In this document: positions 30,264 to 45,040 of the stretch, piece after piece | How positions within the stretch are numbered: position 1 is the stretch's first letter | How the letters are laid out: each line of letters starts with the position of its first letter | Assembly: GCA_050183815.1 (NCBI GenBank) | Contig: JBFXAY010000004.1 | Span: forward strand, 67,051-131,050 | DNA: 64,000 nt | Source: Gemmatimonadales bacterium | Lineage (GTDB): Bacteria > Gemmatimonadota > Gemmatimonadetes > Gemmatimonadales > GWC2-71-9 | Direction of reading: 5' to 3' | The notes under the pieces: generated by a model | What the model saw: only the letters and a program-made list of their open reading frames with translations | Told to the model about the DNA's origin: nothing | Database searches by the model: none | Made by a program: the position numbers and the translations under genes

Positions 30264-32588
30264 TCAGGGCAGATTGAGGAACTGGATGAGGTGATCCTGG
30301 AAGGCGGCGCCCGTCGCCGAGGTGAGGCCGATCCACGCCCGGCCCTGCGGGTCGAGCAGATTCACGCCGCCGACGTTGGTCAGATCGATCGTCATGGTGA
30401 TCGCGGTGAAGCTCTCGATCCGCACTTCGAGGAAACCCGAGAAATAGGTGATCGTCACGTCCTGGCTCAGGCCGAGGGACATGTCCTGCGGCACGGCGGC
30501 GGAGGCCAGCGAAAAGGTGTGGCTCGCGCTGTTCCCCTGCAGGCCCCGGGTGTGGACGCTGATGTGGTTGCCGTTCGGGTCACCGGTTCCGGGGCTCGCG
30601 AACATGTCGAACTCGATCGCGAGACTCCGGGTGATGTTCGCGTAGCCCATCCCGGATCCGCCGTCGCCAAGAGCCACGCTGTCCTGATTCTGGATCACGA
30701 AGGCCAGGCCTTCGCCGCCGGACTGCCCGAACGAGTCGAGGGCCCCGCCCCGGTTGGTGATCCGAAACCCGAACTGGGCAACGAAACCACCCGCGAGGTA
30801 TCGCTTGCCGTAGGTCCATGCCGCGCCCGTCTGACCGGGGGTGGCCGCCGCCAGCAGCACGCCGCCGGCGGTGGCGCTTCCGACCGTCCGGAGCGGGGCC
30901 GTCCAGGTCGAGGTGACGTTGACCACGACGCTGTCGCGCCGGGTCGGATCGGCCGTCGCGATGGCCCGGACGACGGTCCGGCCGTTGCCGATCGCCGTCA
31001 CCTGGCCTGACCCGTTGACGGTCGCGACCGCCGGGTTGCTCGACACGAAGGTCGCGGTGGCGGGCACGTCGACGGCCACGACCACCGCCGTCGGCGTTTC
31101 AACCGATGGGATGTCGAGCCAGAGGGAGTCCTGGACGTAGGTCACCCCCACCACGCCGGCCACGCGAACGAACGCCCCGTCGCTCTTCGTCGGATCGACC
31201 GCCGACCGGGCGGTAACGAAAGCGATCCCCGGCGCGATCCCGGTCACCAGACCGGTCACCGGATTGACCGTGGCAACCGCCGGATTGCTGATCTCCCACG
31301 TCACGCCGGGACTGGTCCCGCCCACGGTCGTGACCGTCACGCCGGGCGTGAACGTCTGGCCGGGCGTGAGGCGCAGGGTGTCCGGCGTCACGGCGACGTC
31401 GATGACGCCGCGCACACTCACCATGGCGCTGTCGGCCTTGGTGGGATCGGCCGTCGCCGTCGCGACGATGGGCACGATACCGGGCGACACGCCGGTGACG
31501 ACCCCCGTCGCGCTCACCGTGGCCACCTCGACATCGCGGCTCGCCCAGGACACCGTCGTCGGCACGGTACCGGTCGCGACCACCGTCGCGGTGGCCGTGA
31601 CGGTGGCCCCGGGATCGATCGTGGCGGTCGGCGGGGTGACCGTGATGGACAACACCCCCCGCACGGTCACGACGACGGAATCGCGCCGGGATGGATCGGC
31701 CAGCGCCTCGGCAACGACCACGGTCCGCCCGGCCGCCGCTGCGGTGATCCGCCCGGTGCCGTCCACCGAGGCGATCACGGGGTTGCGGCTCAGCCAGCGG
31801 ACGCCATTGGCCACGCCGATCACGGTGACCGTGGCCCCGGGCGTGGCGTTGGCGCCCGGATCGAGCGTCAGCGAATCGGGGGCGATCGCGACCGAGACGA
31901 CGCCGCGAACCACGATCGGCCGCGAGGCGGCGATGGACGAATCCGCCACGACGGCGGCGGACAGCGCGGCGGTCCCGGCAAGCAGCGCCGTCGCCGTGCC
32001 GGTGGCCGAAACCGAAACCGTGGCCGGCGCACTGCTCTGCCAGCGGATCGCGAGGCCGCCGATCACGGCACCCTGGCGATCCCTCACCTCGGCCGACCCG
32101 GCGGCGCTCTGGCCGACGTTCAGCGTGTCGGGCAGGCCTGACAGGACCAGCGAGCCCGGCGCCCGGAGGACTACCGGCGGCGTCGTGACCACGCTGCCCG
32201 GCCGCACCACGAACGGACCGATCTCGTGGCGGTCGACGACATCGCCCTGCGCGCTCAGGAGCGAAAGTCGGATCCGGACGGGACAGCCGTCGCCCGCCTC
32301 CCGCGCCGGATCCGCAATGCAGTCGGCGACATCGAGACCGAGGTCGACCTGATCCGTCGGACCGGCGCCGAGGACCTTGGTAACCTCGGGAAACGGAACC
32401 TCGCTGTTGCTGCGGAGGTAGTACGGTGCCGCAACGATCGTCTCGCCGGCGGCGCCGCCGGTGACCGCCAGCGCCAGCTGGATCGGCACCGGGCCGGTCC
32501 CATCGGGTTCGGTACACGCCGCGAGCAGGAGAGCGGCCGTCGTCGCGGCCGCGCCGACCGCGCGAGCCCGGAGCGGGTGGCGGATCAT
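30264..32588 (-). CDS. Surface lipoprotein: 5 tandem Big_2 Ig-like domains + C-terminal L-type (legume-like) lectin domain
   Basis: Lipobox LLLAAC. Five repeats of about 83 aa (…V.V.P..L.L.PG…V.W.S.NP.VATV…G.VT….G….). Lectin motifs GGEGLAFVIQN, GNHISVHT, AWIGLTSATGAAFQDHLIQF. Confidence 0.75.
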   Translation of the reverse strand: MIRHPLRARAVGAAATTAALLLAACTEPDGTGPVPIQLALAVTGGAAGETIVAAPYYLRSNSEVPFPEVTKVLGAGPTDQVDLGLDVADCIADPAREAGDGCPVRIRLSLLSAQGDVVDRHEIGPFVVRPGSVVTTPPVVLRAPGSLVLSGLPDTLNVGQSAAGSAEVRDRQGAVIGGLAIRWQSSAPATVSVSATGTATALLAGTAALSAAVVADSSIAASRPIVVRGVVSVAIAPDSLTLDPGANATPGATVTVIGVANGVRWLSRNPVIASVDGTGRITAAAAGRTVVVAEALADPSRRDSVVVTVRGVLSITVTPPTATIDPGATVTATATVVATGTVPTTVSWASRDVEVATVSATGVVTGVSPGIVPIVATATADPTKADSAMVSVRGVIDVAVTPDTLRLTPGQTFTPGVTVTTVGGTSPGVTWEISNPAVATVNPVTGLVTGIAPGIAFVTARSAVDPTKSDGAFVRVAGVVGVTYVQDSLWLDIPSVETPTAVVVAVDVPATATFVSSNPAVATVNGSGQVTAIGNGRTVVRAIATADPTRRDSVVVNVTSTWTAPLRTVGSATAGGVLLAAATPGQTGAAWTYGKRYLAGGFVAQFGFRITNRGGALDSFGQSGGEGLAFVIQNQDSVALGDGGSGMGYANITRSLAIEFDMFASPGTGDPNGNHISVHTRGLQGNSASHTFSLASAAVPQDMSLGLSQDVTITYFSGFLEVRIESFTAITMTIDLTNVGGVNLLDPQGRAWIGLTSATGAAFQDHLIQFLNLP
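30909..32156 (-). repeat. Tandem Big_2 domain-encoding repeats (5 units, ~250 nt each)
   Basis: Protein-level periodicity across aa ~145-560 of the 774-aa ORF. Units end ...DSVVVTVRG / DSAMVSVRG / DGAFVRVAG / DSVVVNVTS. Confidence 0.7.
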
Positions 32589-33757
32589 CGAATGGTTACC
32601 GTCAGACCCGCGCCGAATCCGGAGACCGACGACTCGGCCGGCCCGGCGTCGAGCCGCCCTCCGCCGATGCTGGCAAAGGGCTCGACGGTGGCCCGCCCCG
32701 AGCGGAGCGTGAGGCCCAGGGTCAGGGTGGCGAGGTTGGCCGCGGCAGTCGTGATGGTCTGGTCCACCTCGAGACCGCCGTCGAGACGGCCCTCCAGCCG
32801 GGCGAACACGCTGGCCGCCCGGCCGACCGCAACCGCGCCGTCAGCGGCAGCCATCAGATAGTTGCCCGAGGAACCGGCCACCTTCCGGCCGTCGATGCCC
32901 GCGAAGCGGCTCCGGTAGCGATCAGCCACCGTGAAACCGAGCCGTTCCATGCCACGCGGGGCGAGGTCCAGGTACGCCGTGGCGGAGAATTGCGGGCCCA
33001 GCTGATAGGTACCCTCGACCGCGCCGCCCGGCTGGTCGAGCGACAACCGGTCCTTGCCGTAGATGTCCGCCGCGACCAGCAGCGAAAATTTGCCCGCGCC
33101 GACCAGCCGGTCCGCGCCGAACGAGAAGCGAACGGCTGGTCCGGGGCGCAGGTCGGTCGGCGCCGCGGCGCCGGCCAGCCGGGCCTCCACCGGGGAGTAA
33201 CTACCGCGAATCTCGACCGACGACCCGAAGGCGACACCCCACTCGCCGGCCGACATCGCGTACACGAGCCCGGCGGTCCCGCCCATCCCCAAGCCCAGGC
33301 TGGGCACCGGCATCCCAAGGGCCGGCGTGGCGAGCACCCGGAGGACGTCGAGCTGGCGGCGCGAGAGCGCGGTCTTGCCGGTTGGCACATTGAGACCGGC
33401 GGTGACGAGCAGCTGATCCCCGACGATCCGGCCGACCGCCCGGACCCGGATGTCGGTCAACCCGGCGAGATCGAGGTCGCGGCCGTCGGCGGTGCGGACC
33501 CAGCCGCGCGCGACGGCGCCACCGACATCGACGGTCCAGCGGGCGCTCTCGAACGAGACCGAGACCGGAAACGCGATCTGGCTCACGCGGCCGACGTCGA
33601 TCGAATCCTGGGTCAGGGCGTCGGCGAACTTCCACGACACGAAGGACGGCGTGAGGACCGTGCGGGCATCGCTGATGAATCGCTCCTGCGCCGGGAGCGC
33701 CCGGGCGCCGCCGGCCAGCAGCGCGAGGAACAGCAGGCCACGGCGCGAGCGGATCAT
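32585..33757 (-). CDS. Putative outer-membrane beta-barrel protein
   Basis: Signal peptide LLFLALLAGGARALPAQ. About 370 aa of alternating strands rich in G/A/S/T with aromatic girdle residues. 4-nt overlaps with both neighbours. Confidence 0.6.
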   Translation of the reverse strand: MIRSRRGLLFLALLAGGARALPAQERFISDARTVLTPSFVSWKFADALTQDSIDVGRVSQIAFPVSVSFESARWTVDVGGAVARGWVRTADGRDLDLAGLTDIRVRAVGRIVGDQLLVTAGLNVPTGKTALSRRQLDVLRVLATPALGMPVPSLGLGMGGTAGLVYAMSAGEWGVAFGSSVEIRGSYSPVEARLAGAAAPTDLRPGPAVRFSFGADRLVGAGKFSLLVAADIYGKDRLSLDQPGGAVEGTYQLGPQFSATAYLDLAPRGMERLGFTVADRYRSRFAGIDGRKVAGSSGNYLMAAADGAVAVGRAASVFARLEGRLDGGLEVDQTITTAAANLATLTLGLTLRSGRATVEPFASIGGGRLDAGPAESSVSGFGAGLTVTIR

Positions 33758-34677
33758 GGCAGCTGCAGCACGATGATGATCACCGCGTCCAGGCGGAGCC
33801 GGAATGCGGGGTCGGCGGCGTCGACGCGGGTCGGCAAGGTCCGCCGGTTGATCCCCTCGGCCGCGAGCAGGCCGGCGCGCAGCACGGAGGGCGACTCGGG
33901 TCCGGCCGCGGCGGCCGAGCCGAGAGCGTCGAGCCGGGCGGCCGGGGCGGCAAAGTTCGGGTCGAGCCGCCGGGCCGTGCGATACTCGGCGCGGGCCTGG
34001 CCGAAGTCGCCGGTTGCCTCGGCGCGCAATCCGCGGCTGTAGGCGATGAGCGCGCCGAGGTCGCCGGTCGGCCGTTCCTCGATCGCGGCCCGTTCCGCCG
34101 GGGAAAGGCTGATGCCGAGGCGCGAGAAGATGTTGAACGCGAGTGCCTTCTCGGCGTCGAGCACGTCGCGCAACGCGGCGGCGGTGCCCTGAACCGGACT
34201 CACGGTACCCGTCACCACATCGCCCACCCGGCCGGCCAACTGAAGACGGGTCTGGTTGGTGGCCAGCAGGGCACCGGAGACGATGCGCCGCGCGCCGACG
34301 AGCCGGCCCATCCGGGGTGCGGTGGCGGAGTCGACGAAGCCCCGGGAGGCGAGCCCGGTTTCCCGGAGAAACGCCGCGACCCGAAGGCGATCGACGACGC
34401 GGAGCCGGCTGCTCCGGGCCAGGTCGGTCGCGAGGAAATCCGCGAGACCGTATCCGAGCGCGTTGAGTGAGGTGTCGGCCGCCGCTACCCGGAACGGAGC
34501 GACGCCGATCGTCTGGGCCGGGATCGACGCGGGGTTGAAGGTGCGCTCGGCCGCGATGGCCGCCCGGACCGCGGAATCGGCGGCGGCGACGGGACCGGGA
34601 ACCGACGCGACCCGACCGGGGGCACAGGCCGCCAGGCTGAACAGGCCGACGCCAACAACCGCAGAACTGATGCGCAT
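33754..34677 (-). CDS. Lipoprotein with LpoB/TolB_N-like alpha/beta domain and C-terminal TPR
   Basis: ATG 34677 gives MRISSAVVGVGLFSLAAC (lipobox). IGVAPFRV...LGYGLADFLATDLARSSRLRVVDR pattern. TPR-like tail (LIAYSRGLRAEATGDFGQARAEYRTARRLDPNF). Confidence 0.6.
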   Translation of the reverse strand: MRISSAVVGVGLFSLAACAPGRVASVPGPVAAADSAVRAAIAAERTFNPASIPAQTIGVAPFRVAAADTSLNALGYGLADFLATDLARSSRLRVVDRLRVAAFLRETGLASRGFVDSATAPRMGRLVGARRIVSGALLATNQTRLQLAGRVGDVVTGTVSPVQGTAAALRDVLDAEKALAFNIFSRLGISLSPAERAAIEERPTGDLGALIAYSRGLRAEATGDFGQARAEYRTARRLDPNFAAPAARLDALGSAAAAGPESPSVLRAGLLAAEGINRRTLPTRVDAADPAFRLRLDAVIIIVLQLP

Positions 34678-37283: not shown

Positions 37284-38318
<1,035 letters not shown>

Positions 38319-39923: not shown

Positions 39924-40130
39924 TCAGAGGTTCCGGGGCGACGGCTCGAACGGGAACCCCCAGCGACGAAAGACGTCGCCAAGTTCTTCCACGCTGCCGA
40001 AGCGCCACTTCGTGCCGGTCGCCACATCCTCGACGACCCCGGTGAGGCGCATGCCCGGTCCGGCCCGCAAGGCCGTCGCCTGGAGCACGAAGTAACCGTG
40101 GCGGGCGGGGGGCGGCGATTCGGCGGTCAT
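39924..40130 (-). CDS. Small hypothetical protein (68 aa)
   Basis: ATG 40130. High GC3. Pattern GYFVLQ...G.RLTGVVEDVATGTKWRFGSVEELGDVFRRW resembles a recurring but unnamed small-protein motif (…[VL][ED][DN][VL].[ST]G....F.S..EL..[FL]). Confidence 0.4.
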   Translation of the reverse strand: MTAESPPPARHGYFVLQATALRAGPGMRLTGVVEDVATGTKWRFGSVEELGDVFRRWGFPFEPSPRNL

Positions 40131-40167: not shown

Positions 40168-40296
40168 TCAGCAGTTCCCACTTTCTTCGCAGTAGTTCGA
40201 CTCGGTCGGGTTCTTCTTGCAGGCCGTGGCCGTGGCCAGGAGCAGGCCGGCGAAGGCGAGCAGGAACAGGGACCGGGCGGCGAGACGCTTCAGCAT
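40168..40296 (-). CDS. Untracked 42-aa ORF: small Cys-rich lipoprotein/secreted peptide precursor
   Basis: Reverse strand reads GAGGAGG-ttccc-ATG CTG AAG CGT ... TGC TGA, giving MLKRLAARSLFLLAFAGLLLATATACKKNPTESNYCEESGNC. It has a strong SD, a signal peptide with lipobox-like ATAC and high GC3. It falls below the 60-aa cutoff of the ORF track. Confidence 0.45.
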   Translation of the reverse strand: MLKRLAARSLFLLAFAGLLLATATACKKNPTESNYCEESGNC

Positions 40297-40369
40297 GGGA
40301 ACCTCCTCGAGGGGATCTTTGCGTGGGGGCGGAACTCTCTAGCGTGCCCCGGTGGACGGTGACATCTTA

Positions 40370-40407
40370 GGAACGGACCATCGAACCTTCCGTTAGCCAG
40401 CCGTTAA
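40370..40407. promoter_or_regulatory. CCGTTA direct repeats at 11-bp phasing plus inverted AACGGA arm in the divergent intergenic region
   Basis: CCGTTA at 40390-40395 and 40401-40406 (exactly 11 bp apart). AACGGA (40372-40377) is the inverted copy of TCCGTT (40389-40394). The site lies between the small ORF start (40296) and the SARP gene GTG (40431). Confidence 0.3.
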
Positions 40408-40430
40408 CTCGCTGCTGTGCTTGGAGTTCA

Positions 40431-43400
40431 GTGCCAGCTCCCCACTCCCTTTTCTCGCTCGGCCGGACCGAGCTCACGACCCCGGACGGCGGCGGAGTTC
40501 GCCGGCGGAAAGAGCTGGCGCTGCTCGCCTACCTGGCCCGCCGGGCGCCGCGACCGATCGAGCGCGACCGGGCCATGACCCTCCTCTGGGGCGACCGGCC
40601 CGATGCCAAGGCACGGACGTCGTTCCGGCAGGCGGTCTTCGAAATCCGAACGGCGATCGGCGACGCGCTCGTGGCCTCCGCCACCGAGGTGTCGGTCGAC
40701 CCGGCGCTGCTGGCGCTCGACGCGAATGACTTCGAAGCCGACTGCGCCGCCGGCCGGTTCCGAGACGCCGTGGCCCGGTGGCAGGGGTCCTTCCTTGCCG
40801 GGCTCGACGATCTCGGGTCCGAAGACTGGCGGCTCTGGCTCGAAGGCGAAAGAGCGGCCCTCGCCGTCGCGATGATCCGGGCGCTCGAACACCTCGGCGC
40901 GGCCGCCGAAGCGGGAGGAGACTGGTCCGCCGTCGCAGCGCTGGCCGAACGTCAGTACGAACTGGACCGGAGCGACGACACCGGGCGGCGAATGGTCTCG
41001 GCGCTGCGCCGTGCCGGACAGGACTCCCGCGCTGCCGCCGCGGAGGCTCGCCTGCAACTCGGCGGCGCCGGCCCGGCGGCCGCCGGACCCCGGGCGGCGA
41101 CCCGCGGACTCATCACCCCGGACCTGATGGGACGAACCGGCGCTCTCGGCGTCCTGCGCCGGGCCCGCGCCGAGGTAGCGAGTCACACCGGCGCAGCCGC
41201 AGGCCGGGTGATCGTGATCGATGGACCGGCGGGCATGGGCAAGAGCCGGCTCATTGCCGAGTTCGCGCGCGAACTGGCGGCCGCCTCCCCCGGCCCGACG
41301 GTGCTCACCGCGCGGGCGTTCGGCTCGCAGCGGGAGCGGCGGTGGTCCGCGCTGCAACCGTTGCTGGGCACGGCGGCACTCACGGCCAAGGGCATCGCGG
41401 CGGTGCCGCCGGAGCAACTCGCGCAGTTGAGCGACGTCGTTCCCGAATTGCGCGAACGCTTCCCGCGGTTGCCGCCGGCCGCGCCGGGCGCCGACCTGCG
41501 GTCAACGGCCGCCCGGCTGCTGGCGGAATCCGCGGCCGAGCATCCGCTGGTCCTGCTGGTGGACGACGCGCCGGACGCCGACGCCGAATCCGAGGCGGTG
41601 CTCGGAACCCTGGCCCGGCAGGCGCCGCCGGGGTTCCTGCTCGTGCTGGCCGGCCGCTCCGACGGGTGGGCGCGGTCGGCGCTGACGCCCGACCTCCGCC
41701 GGGGCGGCACCGAGGTGCAGTGGCTGACGCTCCCGCCGCTCACCGAAACCGAGACGGCGGGACTGATTGCCTCCACCGCGACGTTCGCGCCCGCCGCGAC
41801 CGCCGCGCTGGCCGCGCGGCTCCACGGGCTCGCGGCCGGCGTTCCCGGCCTCGTCCACTCGCTCCTCGGGCAATTGGCCGAGGCCCGCCTGATCGGGCCC
41901 GATGCCGACGGCGCCTGGACCATTCGCGGCGATCTCGACACCATCGTCCTCGGCGGCGACGCCGACGAGCGGCTGCTGGGCGGTCTGGCCGACCTGACCC
42001 CGGCCGCCCGCCGGCTGCTCGACCTGAGCGCGATCCTCGGCCCCCGGATCGATACCGCCATCCTCGAGCGAGCCGCCCGGCTCGACACCGACACCTTCGG
42101 GCCGGCGTTAGGCATGCTCCTCGCCGGCCGGCATCTCCGCCAGCCGCCCCTGGCGCCCGATCAGGTCGAGTTCTCGAGCGAGATCGCCCGGCGGGCGGTG
42201 GCCGGCGCGCTCCCCCCGAGCGCCCGGAGGGCACTCCATCGGGAGGCGGCGAGAGCCTACGGGCGCTCGGCCGATCCGCGGCGGCGGGCCGAATCGGAGC
42301 GGCACCGGGCGGCGGCCGGGGCGAGCCGCTTCCGGATCCGGGTCGCGGTTGCCGTGGTAACGATCGCGCTCGCCGCGGCGGCGTGGTGGCAATTCGGGCC
42401 GCGGCCGTCGCGACCCGTCGCCCCGGGGACGCCGGTCCTCCTCGCGGACGTGGCCAACCAGACCGACGAGCCGCTCTTCGAAGGCTCTCTGACCGTCGCG
42501 GCCCAGGTGGCCCTGCAGGAGGCCCGGCGTTTCTGGGTGGTGCCGCGGTGGCAGGTTCTGGAAGCGCTTGCCCGGATGAACCGGACCGACACGACCGCGA
42601 CCCTTCGCGGGGAGCTGGCCCGCGAGGTGGCGCTGCGGGAGAACGTCCCGCTGATCATCGAGATGGACGTAGCCCGGCGGGCCGACGGCTATCTGGTGAC
42701 CGCGCGCTTGATCGACGCCAAGCTCGGCAGCGACGCGGCGAGCTTCGTGGCGCGGCCGGCGCGGCGCGACGAGGTGATCGACGCCGTCGGTGAGGTCGTC
42801 TCGCGCATCCGCGACCGGCTGGGCGAGGCCCGGATCCGGCCCGATTCCATGAGCCGTCTGGCCCGGGTGACGACCGGTTCGCTCGAAGCGCTGCAGCAGT
42901 ACTCCCTCGGCGCCATTGCGTGGGACCGGCGGGAATTCGACAAGGCCGCCGGCTACTGGCGCCGGGCGACCGAGATCGACTCCGCGTTCGCGATGGCGTA
43001 TGCGCGCCTCGCGACGTTTTCGCTCTGGCTCGAGAACAACCGCCCCCGGGCCGTGACGTGGCTCGCGGCCGCCGAACGCCACGCTGCGGCGATGACGGAA
43101 CCGGAGCGGCTGATTCTCGCAGGCGTCCGGGCCACCGTGGCCGGTGACCAGTTCGCCGCGGTCACCGCCGACCAGATGCTGGCCGAGCGATACCCGACGC
43201 CGGACAATCTCTTCAACCTGGCCACGACGATGTTCCGGGCGGGGCGGTGCGCGGACGCGGTGCCGGTCTTCCACCGCGCGGCCGCCCTGCGACCGAGCGC
43301 CTCCGTCTGGATCAACCTGGCCACCTGCTACCAGGTCCTCGACAGTCTCGAGCCGGCTCTCGAGGCCTACCGGCGCGCCGGCACGGCGGACTCGGTCATT

Positions 43401-44261
43401 CTGTTCAGCGCCAACATCAATCAGGAATACGGCCTGCTCTTCCTGCGGGCCGGCCGTCCGGAAGCGGCCGAATCGGTCTTTCGCCGGATGGCGGCGCGGC
43501 CGGATCCGTCAAGCCAGGGCCGCGGCTACCGGTCGCTGGCGTTCCTGGCGAGCTACCAGGGCCGGTACCGCGACGCCCTGGCAGCGCTGGAGCAATCGCT
43601 CAGCCGGTACCGCAGCCGGGGCGCGCCGCTGTCGGTGTTCCGCACGTTGCTGCTGGCCGCGCAGAGTGCGGCCTCGCTGGGCGACGCCACCGCATCGGCC
43701 GAATTCCTTGCTCAGGCCCGCACCGTCATCGGCACGCAACCCCTGGAGCCCGTATACCTCGACCGGATCGCCGCCGCCCACCTGCGGCTCGGCGACCGCC
43801 GCGGCGCCGGGTACTGGGAGCGCCGGCTTCGCCGCGAGGTGCTCGCGGGCAACCGGGCCGACAGCGTCCAGATCAGACTCACCGCCGCCCGGTTCGCGGT
43901 CGCCGGCGGTCAGGCGCGCGAGGCGCTCCGGTTGCTCGCGGTCGGGCCGGATCTCGCGCCGGCGCTCCTGGGCCCGTATGCGATCGTCAGCGGGAAGGCC
44001 TACGCCGCGCTCGGCCGGGCCGATTCCGCCCTGATGGCGTGGGAGCGAGCGCGGGTCTGGTGGGGCGGCGGATCGGAAACCCAGGACGAGTGGGAGCGAC
44101 TTCCCCTTTCGATGGCCAGCGCGGCTCTGGTCGCCGGGGACACGGCCCGGGCCCGGGACCTCCTCGCGGTGCTGGTGCGGCGCTGGGAGCGGGCGGATTC
44201 GGCCGCTCCCGACGTGGCCCGGGCGCGGCTGCTCTTCGGGCGGCTGGAGCCCGGGCACTGA
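40431..44261 (+). CDS. SARP-type regulator (wHTH + BTAD) fused to P-loop NTPase, TM helix, periplasmic alpha/beta module and long TPR array
   Basis: wHTH RRKELALLAYLA..LLWGDRPDAKARTSFRQAVFEIR. BTAD helices. Walker A GPAGMGKSRL and Walker B-like LVLLVDDAPDAD. TM IRVAVAVVTIALAAAAWWQF. PVLLADVANQTDEPLFEGSL...YLVTARLID module. At least 8 TPR-like repeats to the C-terminus. Confidence 0.85.
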   Translation: MPAPHSLFSLGRTELTTPDGGGVRRRKELALLAYLARRAPRPIERDRAMTLLWGDRPDAKARTSFRQAVFEIRTAIGDALVASATEVSVDPALLALDANDFEADCAAGRFRDAVARWQGSFLAGLDDLGSEDWRLWLEGERAALAVAMIRALEHLGAAAEAGGDWSAVAALAERQYELDRSDDTGRRMVSALRRAGQDSRAAAAEARLQLGGAGPAAAGPRAATRGLITPDLMGRTGALGVLRRARAEVASHTGAAAGRVIVIDGPAGMGKSRLIAEFARELAAASPGPTVLTARAFGSQRERRWSALQPLLGTAALTAKGIAAVPPEQLAQLSDVVPELRERFPRLPPAAPGADLRSTAARLLAESAAEHPLVLLVDDAPDADAESEAVLGTLARQAPPGFLLVLAGRSDGWARSALTPDLRRGGTEVQWLTLPPLTETETAGLIASTATFAPAATAALAARLHGLAAGVPGLVHSLLGQLAEARLIGPDADGAWTIRGDLDTIVLGGDADERLLGGLADLTPAARRLLDLSAILGPRIDTAILERAARLDTDTFGPALGMLLAGRHLRQPPLAPDQVEFSSEIARRAVAGALPPSARRALHREAARAYGRSADPRRRAESERHRAAAGASRFRIRVAVAVVTIALAAAAWWQFGPRPSRPVAPGTPVLLADVANQTDEPLFEGSLTVAAQVALQEARRFWVVPRWQVLEALARMNRTDTTATLRGELAREVALRENVPLIIEMDVARRADGYLVTARLIDAKLGSDAASFVARPARRDEVIDAVGEVVSRIRDRLGEARIRPDSMSRLARVTTGSLEALQQYSLGAIAWDRREFDKAAGYWRRATEIDSAFAMAYARLATFSLWLENNRPRAVTWLAAAERHAAAMTEPERLILAGVRATVAGDQFAAVTADQMLAERYPTPDNLFNLATTMFRAGRCADAVPVFHRAAALRPSASVWINLATCYQVLDSLEPALEAYRRAGTADSVILFSANINQEYGLLFLRAGRPEAAESVFRRMAARPDPSSQGRGYRSLAFLASYQGRYRDALAALEQSLSRYRSRGAPLSVFRTLLLAAQSAASLGDATASAEFLAQARTVIGTQPLEPVYLDRIAAAHLRLGDRRGAGYWERRLRREVLAGNRADSVQIRLTAARFAVAGGQAREALRLLAVGPDLAPALLGPYAIVSGKAYAALGRADSALMAWERARVWWGGGSETQDEWERLPLSMASAALVAGDTARARDLLAVLVRRWERADSAAPDVARARLLFGRLEPGH

Positions 44262-44374: not shown

Positions 44375-45040
44375 ATGACTACGGGACGGAGGGACTTTCT
44401 GGGCACGCTGGCCGCCGGCGCCGTCGGCGCAGCGGCCTTCGGCGCGATCGAGGCGAATCGCGCCGAAGCGCAAACCGCGGCGACTGGGTGGGATCTCGGC
44501 TGGGTGAAGAAGCTCACCGGCAAGTATCGCGCGGTGTTCGACGTGCCGCAGGTGGAGGACGGGTATGGGGTGTGGCGGGCGGTACTGTGGCGGAAGCAGT
44601 ATGCGACGATCTTCCGGGTGCCGGAGCAGTCGATTTCCACCGTCGTCGTGCTGCGCCATGATGCGATCGCCCTGGCGCTCAACAACACCTTCTGGGAGAA
44701 GTACGGCATCGCGAAGAAGTGGAACGTGCACGACCCCGCGTCGCGGAAGCCGTTCCCCCGCAATCCGGTCATCGAGCGCACCGGGGCCGCGGCCCTGCCG
44801 GGCGAGTTCGCCGGTTTCACGCTCGAGGATCTTCAGGCGAAGGGCACTATCGTCCTCGCGTGCGCCCTCGCCCTTCGCGACTGCGCCCAGCTCGTCATCG
44901 ACCAGGACAAGGTCCGCTACGAGGACGCGATGAACCAGGTCCGGTCAATGCTCGTTCCCGGCGCGATCCTCCAGCCGTCGGGCATCTTCGGCGTCGTGCT
45001 CGCCCAGGACAACGGCGCCAGATACGTCCTCGGCTCCTGA
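44375..45040 (+). CDS. Tat-signal protein of unknown function (possible DsrE-like fold)
   Basis: Twin-arginine signal TGRRDFLGTLAAGAVGAAAFG. GGAGG RBS 6 nt upstream. alpha/beta pattern with TVVVLRHDAIAL / GTIVLACALALRD. Confidence 0.65.
   Translation: MTTGRRDFLGTLAAGAVGAAAFGAIEANRAEAQTAATGWDLGWVKKLTGKYRAVFDVPQVEDGYGVWRAVLWRKQYATIFRVPEQSISTVVVLRHDAIALALNNTFWEKYGIAKKWNVHDPASRKPFPRNPVIERTGAAALPGEFAGFTLEDLQAKGTIVLACALALRDCAQLVIDQDKVRYEDAMNQVRSMLVPGAILQPSGIFGVVLAQDNGARYVLGS

Follow-up and report, generated by a model that had tools for sequence, protein, structure and literature searches.

AfsR and the other large SARPs (Streptomyces antibiotic regulatory proteins) of Streptomyces, including the SARP-LAL proteins PimR and SanG (LAL, LuxR-family regulators that are large and bind ATP), join an OmpR-type winged helix-turn-helix (wHTH) domain and a bacterial transcriptional activator domain (BTAD) to a STAND NTPase (signal transduction ATPase with numerous domains) and tetratricopeptide repeats (TPRs). 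A 2024 review of these proteins (PMC10972967) recognises four classes, small, medium, large and SARP-LAL, and has no word on a membrane-bound one. Here we analyze a 64,000-nucleotide stretch of a Gemmatimonadales metagenome-assembled genome (MAG; contig JBFXAY010000004.1, positions 67,051 to 131,050), hereafter the window, with positions counted from its first letter. The window encodes a protein with all of these elements, referred to below as the regulator. Unlike the large SARPs, it has a predicted transmembrane (TM) helix and a TolB_N-like module between the NTPase and the TPRs, which are predicted to be periplasmic; unlike AfsR, it has an NTPase of the AAA_16 rather than the NB-ARC type and belongs to the Gemmatimonadota rather than the Actinobacteria. 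If a large SARP is defined by a SARP head, an NB-ARC domain and soluble cytoplasmic TPRs, the regulator falls outside that class, having an AAA_16 domain and a conserved, predicted membrane helix.

40431 to 44261, plus strand: complete regulator gene, GTG start at 40431, stop at 44259-44261, 1276 codons in one open reading frame (ORF)

The regulator also recalls ToxR and CadC, which likewise carry a cytoplasmic N-terminal winged helix of the OmpR family, a single TM helix and a periplasmic sensor, the layout predicted here. It differs from them in about 530 extra cytoplasmic residues (BTAD plus STAND) and in an unrelated periplasmic domain, and ToxR-type regulators lack a nucleotide switch; the regulator is an analogue of ToxR and CadC, not a homologous member of their group. 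MalT and other STAND regulators likewise have a nucleotide-binding domain (NBD), a helical domain with a GxP motif and a winged helix, are of the AAA_16 type, and are presumed to be controlled by nucleotide and oligomeric state. Unlike MalT, the regulator has its DNA-binding domain at the N terminus, as a SARP head rather than a C-terminal LuxR helix-turn-helix, and its sensor would lie across the membrane. Taking the evidence below together, we think that it is probably a bitopic, membrane-tethered, nucleotide-gated SARP that activates a divergent small-protein operon in response to a periplasmic signal. Its parts are all of known kinds; the combination is conserved, real and, as far as we could find, uncharacterised. 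In a literature search, no paper describing a transmembrane SARP or STAND regulator came up, and none describing the TolB-like/TPR cassette treated below, in agreement with an earlier note, made from the DNA letters alone, whose author knew of no characterised example of this combination.

The window has a G+C content of about 70%, at which long spurious ORFs are frequent. The regulator is genuine despite this, because the G+C content at its third codon positions (0.89) is that of other genes of the window, because a Gemmatimonadales MAG and an independent assembly each have a called protein that is 100% identical to it (P0001, with a source name of merely "AAA family ATPase"), and because about 27 full-length relatives, with 30-56% identity, cover 97-100% of it. 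These grounds exclude a chance ORF, and the full-length relatives in particular exclude a frameshift artefact. The earlier note had reported a single uninterrupted ORF of 1276 codons while naming a frameshift as a possible alternative, which would have split the gene into a soluble SARP-ATPase and a separate membrane TPR protein. The elements that the note had listed, namely a SARP head, a P-loop NTPase, a hydrophobic helix, an alpha/beta module and TPRs, are all present and in the order given.

40431 to 41060, plus strand: SARP head, residues 1-210, with an OmpR-type winged helix (residues 1-96) and BTAD helices (residues 97-209), by family profile, AlphaFold2 (AF2) model and Foldseek

The SARP head is recognized only faintly from the single sequence. 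Trans_reg_C matches residues 26-78 with 22.8 bits, against a Pfam cut-off of 26.2, and BTAD (PF03704), which is recorded for most homologues, has no match to the regulator itself in a Pfam search at E values up to 1. EmbR is related to the regulator by phmmer at an E value of 0.0035. A sequence search of the PDB with the N-terminal half alone gave no match and the family profile was required: it matches AfsR (8K60) at an E value of 4.5e-42, confined to positions 5-340, and EmbR (2FEZ) at 1.4e-34. In the AF2 model the head has a predicted local distance difference test score (pLDDT) above 90, and the first 230 residues or so superpose on AfsR and EmbR in Foldseek (about 230 columns, 24% identity). 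An OmpR-type winged helix with BTAD helices directly behind it, the arrangement by which a SARP is defined, is therefore found here, and the winged helix and BTAD signature claimed at first reading is backed by both the family profile and the superposed model. The Pfam search proposed along with that claim had a mixed outcome: AAA_16 and TPR were matched, Trans_reg_C remained below its threshold, and BTAD and NB-ARC gave no match.

41127 to 42320, plus strand: STAND module, residues 233-630, with NBD, helical domain with GxP, winged helix and short helical stalk, by AAA_16 match and Foldseek
41223 to 41246, plus strand: Walker A motif GPAGMGKS, residues 265-272; GxxGxGK(S/T) in 30 of 30 aligned homologues
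41547 to 41567, plus strand: Walker B motif LVLLVDD, residues 373-379; hhhhDD in 29 of 30 aligned homologues, with LDE in the other

Behind the head, AAA_16 matches residues 233-405 with 56 bits in Pfam; NACHT and nSTAND5 match weakly, and NB-ARC has no match in the same search. Judged by its sequence, the ATPase is of the AAA_16/MalT-LAL type, not of the NB-ARC type found in AfsR. D378 and D379 are invariant in a 39-sequence family alignment, G470 and P472 are likewise invariant, and G268, G270, K271 and R409 are invariant or nearly so; the sensor Arg (R409) and the GxP motif (G470, P472) are thus kept across the family. The AF2 model of residues 1-640, built on a 47-sequence alignment, has a pLDDT of 91.6 and shows, in order, the winged helix, BTAD to residue 209, a disordered linker (residues 212-220), an alpha/beta NBD, a helical and winged-helix region (residues 439-581) and a short helical stalk (residues 584-630). 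The P-loop NTPase of the first reading consequently has what a STAND protein is expected to have in this part: an NBD with Walker A, Walker B and the sensor-1 Arg, a helical domain with GxP, and a winged helix. It departs from the STAND plan in one respect, since the repeat sensor is not contiguous with the nucleotide-binding oligomerization domain (NOD): the predicted TM helix and the alpha/beta module intervene.

Foldseek matches this half to STAND and initiator ATPases, with Avs3 as the best match, followed by the STAND-TPR protein 6MFV, Apaf-1 and ORC/Cdc6. The first of these raises the question of whether the regulator is an Avs-like, anti-phage STAND receptor instead of a housekeeping signal regulator. 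We find this highly improbable, as PADLOC reports 0 families, defence genes are absent from the neighbourhood of the regulator, its output part is a SARP DNA-binding head for which a conserved operator is predicted, and a sensor in the periplasm would miss phage proteins in the cytoplasm. Identity as a defence system was rejected on the absence of a PADLOC match.

42336 to 42395, plus strand: predicted TM helix, residues 636-655, behind an Arg-rich stretch, by hydropathy, AF2, conservation and Lys+Arg (K+R) bias

The regulator has a single hydropathy peak, at residues 634-656 (Kyte-Doolittle maximum 1.81), and this is its only candidate membrane segment; it lies where the earlier note had placed a 20-residue hydrophobic helix behind an Arg-rich stretch, and its position is conserved. 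AF2 gives residues 631-655 as a long, lone helix of 25 residues with no packing partner. A hydrophobic 19-mer between the NOD and the alpha/beta module is present in 46 of 46 members that have both, with a hydropathy of 1.5 or more in 44 and a highest value of 2.77, so that conservation of the TM segment in orthologues, which the note had proposed to look for, is indeed seen. The location of the helix is conserved and its hydrophobicity is mostly higher in the relatives; its character has been kept, its residues have not. The 20-residue flanks hold on average 5.6 K+R on the N-terminal side and 2.1 on the C-terminal side, with an excess on the N-terminal side in 44 of the 46 members, a count over related sequences that speaks for consistency and is not an independent statistic.

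42429 to 42818, plus strand: predicted periplasmic alpha/beta module, residues 667-796, TolB_N/FlgO/LpoB/CsgG-like, beginning VLLADxxNxT(G)D; AF2 pLDDT above 90
42882 to 44246, plus strand: predicted periplasmic TPR superhelix, residues 818-1272, about 24 helices, by TPR_1, TPR_2, AF2 and Foldseek
33754 to 34677, minus strand: lipoprotein (lipobox LAAC) with an alpha/beta module of the same type followed by a short TPR, by module HMM, hhalign and CsgG match

The C-terminal half (residues 625-1276) was modelled with a pLDDT of 92.3 and a predicted template modelling score of 0.89; AlphaFold modelling, as suggested at the outset, thus gave confident models of both halves. Behind the lone helix and a linker comes the compact alpha/beta module, which a second linker, short and disordered, joins to about 24 TPR-type helices (about 12 repeats). 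The roughly 450 residues of TPR claimed earlier are borne out by this model and by Pfam, which matches TPR families at residues 925-1100. Pfam has no match to the regulator's own alpha/beta module; 25 modules of the family gave weak matches throughout, to FlgO in 9 (best E value 2.8e-4), TolB_N in 4 and LpoB in 3, which accords with the TolB_N/LpoB-type module of about 130 residues first described. A Foldseek search with the C-terminal model was dominated by the TPRs and returned generic long TPR arrays alone, and the alpha/beta fold was not assigned structurally. The proposed likeness to the lipoprotein at 33754-34677 was confirmed: among the ORFs of the window, an HMM of the regulator's module finds it at an E value of 7.9e-10 (hhalign probability 76%), and the lipoprotein's module itself matches CsgG at 3e-7.

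The TM helix, the TolB_N-like module and the TPRs recur together as a cassette elsewhere, behind Ser/Thr kinase heads in the majority of cases and otherwise behind guanylate cyclase, wHTH-only or BTAD-only heads, and one or three hydrophobic segments precede the cassette in every such protein. The cassette proteins are homologous to the C-terminal 640 residues of the regulator, with E values down to 1e-123. They comprise Ser/Thr kinases of Acidobacteriota and Gemmatimonadota, guanylate cyclases, TIGR04510 proteins ("putative peptide modification system cyclase"), wHTH-only proteins of about 780-850 residues and BTAD-only proteins of about 930-1050 residues. They differ in their cytoplasmic output, and the regulator family alone has a STAND NTPase between output and membrane. 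Positions 216-758 of the NCBIfam profile TIGR04510 align to residues 638-1178 of the regulator (E value 3.4e-42); the regulator is not a member, since the N-terminal 215 profile positions are uncovered and its 144.9 bits fall below the curated cut-off of 400. Those 215 positions presumably hold the cyclase domain, as the family name implies.

43248 to 43328, plus strand: cysteine pair conserved together, Cys940 (43248-43250) and Cys966 (43326-43328), sited on neighbouring antiparallel TPR helices; putative disulfide of the periplasm

Kinase, cyclase and DNA-binding heads need ATP, GTP or DNA; the heads of the cassette must therefore be on the cytoplasmic side. An N-in/C-out orientation of the regulator is very likely, with the SARP head and the NTPase predicted in the cytoplasm and the TPRs in the periplasm. 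The earlier note had predicted the TPRs outside by the positive-inside rule, and four independent in-silico lines point the same way: the charge bias, the recurrence of the cassette behind other heads, the lipoprotein copy of the module and a pair of cysteines. Cys is found at positions 940 and 966 in 34 and 35 of 39 members, respectively; 3 members lack both, and one lacks Cys940 alone. In most members these are the sole cysteines of the C-terminal half, and the model places one at the start of a TPR helix and the other near the end of the next, antiparallel helix. The pair occurs in 11-12 of 47 cassette sequences, all of them SARP-STAND members, and is absent from kinase-type cassettes. A periplasmic Cys940-Cys966 disulfide, structural or redox-sensing, is possible, and the pair recalls the regulatory disulfide of CadC (PMC3096576).

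Were the hydrophobic segment not to span the membrane, the whole protein would be a cytoplasmic, AfsR-like large SARP. The composition of the segment, rich in Ala and Val, and its modest peak fit this reading, as does a relative (P0002) without any 19-mer above 1.5. Against it are the segments of orthologues at the same place, which score up to 2.77, the strong charge bias, the hydrophobic segments that always precede the cassette, the presence of the module in a lipoprotein, and the unpacked helix of the AF2 model; we give a soluble regulator hardly any credence.

40380 to 40411, no strand assigned: candidate SARP operator, direct repeats at 11-nt spacing, by repeat search and 23-locus footprint
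40380 to 40386: DR0, ATCGAAC (degenerate)
40390 to 40396: DR1, CCGTTAG
40401 to 40407: DR2, CCGTTAA
40363 to 40368, minus strand: -10-like hexamer TAAGAT of the predicted divergent promoter; DR1 lies 20-21 nt away, DR0 about 9-11 nt

Upstream of the regulator the window carries a pair of direct repeats, CCGTTAGCCAGCCGTTAAC (40390-40408), with TTRACG as their minus-strand reading. A CGTYA(A/G)-N5/6-CGTYAA pair with 11-12 nt spacing is found within 150 nt upstream of the regulator gene in 23 of 23 loci. One turn beyond the pair is a third repeat, which is degenerate, and one locus (L005) has four repeats. DR2 is 22-45 nt from the start codon in 21 of the 23 loci, and 57 and 72 nt away in the other two. 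The strict pattern has exactly one match in the 64-kb window and 17 in 605 kb of loci (both strands), 16 of which are located within 110 nt upstream of regulators. In 22 of the 23 loci an AT-rich, TAASAT-like hexamer, mostly TAAGAT or TAACAT, stands out from the background of 70% G+C at 19-21 nt from the DR1 core, and in most loci the proximal degenerate repeat is about 8-10 nt from it. A consensus scan found no sigma-70 -35/-10 pair, there being no -35 hexamer at a workable spacing.

In Streptomyces, afsS adjoins afsR. The afs box bound by AfsR likewise consists of 11-bp direct repeats beside a -10 element without a usable -35; in the promoter of afsS, a pair of 11-bp repeats lies at -40 to -19, overlapping both the -35 element and the spacer between -35 and -10. 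The repeats and the hexamer upstream of the regulator, whose operator is predicted, reproduce this classical SARP promoter layout and make a candidate operator, a layout that suggests that the regulator most likely activates the divergent operon. Autoregulation by the same box is also possible; the box ends about 20-35 nt before the start codon of the regulator in most loci.

Two further promoter readings were considered and dropped. An ECF-type (extracytoplasmic function sigma factor) promoter, GGAAC-N16-CGTT, can be read in the window, and its GGAAC is not conserved in the other loci. A conserved CTGGCG element was read as part of a sigma-54 promoter and discarded on spacing. This element, CTGGCG or CTAGCG (CGCCAG on the minus strand), occurs as CTAGCG at 40339-40344 in the window and at a fixed distance in 22 other loci. 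It lies about 19-25 nt downstream of the -10-like hexamer, in the predicted 5' untranslated region of the divergent transcript, and in several loci just upstream of the ribosome-binding site (RBS).

39924 to 40130, minus strand: divergent partner or target gene, 68-residue protein without signal peptide (window copy P0293), by family HMM
L001 7680-7895, L002 3387-3611, L004 4316-4522 and L005 5698-5907: copies of the 68-residue gene in relatives
40168 to 40296, minus strand: called gene, 42-residue ORF with lipoprotein-type signal (…LLATATAC), three Cys and a GGAGG RBS, first gene of the divergent transcript

The family HMM shows that about 20 distinct loci have, upstream of the regulator and on the strand opposite to it, a gene for a protein of about 68 residues. 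The other neighbours of the regulator vary between loci; this gene is the exception, and it answers positively, for itself, the question raised in the earlier note of whether the divergent small ORFs are conserved. The protein has a core of HGYFVxQ…G(V/M)xExxxTGxKxxFxSxEEL…W and belongs to a family of 78 clusters of 59-94 residues, all named "hypothetical" and without a match in Pfam or NCBIfam. In both afsR/afsS and the present pair a small gene is adjacent to the regulator gene; the small proteins are not detectably related. The divergent operon in relatives often includes large secreted Ig-like proteins or lipoproteins. In four of them (L001, L002, L006 and L007), a lipoprotein of 340-760 residues with a shared C-terminal "NLLxNPGFE…" domain stands in place of the 42-residue ORF, which, judged from the comparison of loci, may be a deletion remnant of that lipoprotein or a small secreted peptide.

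The divergent operon runs on into ATP-grasp (RimK/LdmS-like) genes in L004 (2868-4149, minus strand); in L005 (1-5680, minus strand) it continues with a gene for a giant secreted protein, about 4010 residues long. These two operons hint at a regulon concerned with cell-surface or peptide-modification functions.

Regarding the mechanism, we propose that the periplasmic TolB_N-like module and the superhelix of 12 TPRs would act as the sensor. A ligand in the periplasm or envelope, perhaps in concert with the Cys940-Cys966 redox state, would alter the association of the membrane-spanning helices, and the altered association would favour the ATP-bound, oligomerisation-competent STAND state. Two or three SARP heads would then be set side by side on the 11-bp-periodic CGTYAA repeats of the 134-bp divergent intergenic region, where, as at AfsR-type promoters, they would take over the role of the absent -35 element and bring RNA polymerase to the promoter on the minus strand (-10 TAAGAT). 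This would turn on the divergent operon, whose constant member is the 68-residue cytoplasmic protein and to which relatives often add genes for secreted Ig-like proteins or lipoproteins. We infer DNA binding to the repeats, the direction of regulation, the transmembrane signalling, the disulfide and the ligand. The full chain, in which a periplasmic ligand or redox signal passes through the single helix to gate NOD oligomerisation and brings the SARP heads onto the repeats while the protein stays in the membrane, is put forward tentatively; we rank such direct signalling first, ahead of proteolytic release and, after that, of an ectodomain serving only as an anchor.

In MalT and in NLRs (nucleotide-binding leucine-rich repeat proteins), the repeat sensor packs on the NOD and keeps it closed. 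Full-length AfsR is likewise autoinhibited by its C-terminal NOD and TPRs and is activated by ATP binding (PMC10936776). In the regulator, with the membrane in between, the TPRs are unable to contact the NOD; control would therefore have to run by way of the single helix and the short stalk on its cytoplasmic side (residues 584-630). It might do so by a shift in oligomeric state, by cleavage, or through cytoplasmic partners, of which the 68-residue protein is one candidate.

Cleavage would bypass conformational signalling through a single helix. On this account the anchored form is an inactive store, and a periplasmic signal leads to site-1/site-2 cleavage that frees a soluble SARP-STAND fragment, which would act like a medium-sized SARP; anti-sigma factors and proposals made for CadC and TcpP are precedents. 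Residues 1-630 form a complete SARP plus NOD unit, and for CadC a cleavage-dependent route has been reported (PMC11484849). However, no conserved protease gene adjoins the regulator in the loci inspected, its sequence bears no cleavage-site mark, and DNA binding by membrane-tethered proteins is well established for CadC and ToxR (PMC6320335, PMC7888679). We therefore regard regulated proteolysis as unlikely, though it is the first alternative to direct signalling that we would consider.

Cytoplasmic partners lead to a different account, in which the periplasmic part is an anchor or scaffold docking to an envelope structure and the input is cytoplasmic, either the ATP/ADP level or the 68-residue protein acting on the STAND module. 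STAND regulators are usually under the control of cytoplasmic ligands or partners, as MalT is with its cytoplasmic feedback partners MalY, MalK and Aes, and the most constant neighbour of the regulator encodes a small cytoplasmic protein. Moreover, TolB_N/LpoB/CsgG-like modules and TPRs often dock to envelope structures, and more distant members vary most in their TPR region, many of them aligning only to about residue 900. On the other hand, kinases, cyclases and plain wHTH heads carry the cassette as well, as one would expect if it were a sensor input module, and about 610 periplasmic residues with a conserved Cys pair would be a large investment for an anchor. We thus place a purely anchoring ectodomain slightly below proteolysis, and likewise doubt it.

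Several points weigh against a membrane-tethered activator that is gated from the periplasm. The regulator family is known here from sequences and predicted structures alone. STAND sensor repeats normally contact the NBD to autoinhibit it, which is impossible here across the membrane, and the regulator's own helix is only moderately hydrophobic (1.81), with a topology that is a prediction. Promoter rules for Gemmatimonadota have not been established, and the assignment of the repeats to a promoter (the divergent one, that of the regulator, or both) is read from geometry alone. Three loci (L016, L019 and L028) keep the repeats and lack the 68-residue gene. Finally, one observation in favour of the activator is confounded by phylogeny: loci with CGTTA repeats have QALF in the recognition helix and those with CGTCAA repeats have QALS, which is suggestive of co-evolution, and one clade carries both changes.

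If the full chain, with a periplasmic signal gating the NOD, is real, the regulator would be the first ATPase of the NLR/STAND kind known to take its input from the far side of a membrane, accompanied by a dedicated, previously unrecognised family of 68-residue partner or target proteins. STAND and NLR switches are understood as soluble and clamped by their sensor; a membrane between sensor and switch would need some other control. The regulator would extend ToxR-type signalling across the membrane within one polypeptide to a nucleotide-gated form, and it would present the SARPs, studied mainly in the control of antibiotics in actinobacteria, as membrane receptors in the Gemmatimonadota, a widespread and poorly studied phylum of soil and water. 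Since both an operator and a target gene are predicted for the family, simple assays in a heterologous host could test binding, activation and topology directly. The cassette is common to many uncharacterised kinases and cyclases of Acidobacteriota and Gemmatimonadota, and a ligand found here would inform all of them.

By the searches made, the regulator is not unique and appears as one of dozens of such proteins in the Gemmatimonadota. A scan of 1.84 billion cluster representatives with residues 100-1276 as the query found at least about 37 clusters at 50% identity with the order SARP, NOD, hydrophobic segment and module, and further divergent relatives align from the SARP head through the alpha/beta module. 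In a genome search with a 10-sequence alignment and one genome per GTDB species, every match covering residues 1 to about 1270 came from a Gemmatimonadota MAG (Gemmatimonadales or Gemmatimonadaceae, as GTDB species representatives), and single MAGs had as many as 3 paralogues. By itself, the cassette also matches Acidobacteriota, and the SARP head alone matches Alphaproteobacteria and others. Members bear generic source names such as "AAA family ATPase" or the COG-style "SARP family activator/TPR/TolB-like protein". A variant of the chassis, SARP-TM-cassette without the NTPase, is represented by 17 proteins.

One relative (P0040, 1378 residues) has SARP, NOD and TM parts followed by PD40/TolB beta-propeller repeats instead of TPRs, and another (P0016) is a form of 1841 residues with three hydrophobic segments. 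From such sequences, the SARP-STAND-TM unit appears to have been combined with differing ectodomains.

Some further neighbours of the regulator deserve mention. A gene for a soluble Ser/Thr kinase of 344 residues (37284-38318, plus strand) lies 2 kb upstream and recalls the AfsK/AfsR pair; none is called near the regulator in the five related loci inspected. Directly downstream is a 221-residue Tat-signal protein (MTTGRRDFLG…; 44375-45040, plus strand) without a Pfam match, which is not conserved next to the regulator in the same five loci. Further upstream, the lipoprotein carrying the related module belongs to an apparent three-gene operon (30264-34677, minus strand), together with a 390-residue protein without a Pfam match (32585-33757, minus strand), which lies between the other two, and a 774-residue protein with Big_2 and legume-lectin domains (30264-32588, minus strand). 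The three genes may together serve the envelope or secretion, with the regulator's alpha/beta module in use there too.

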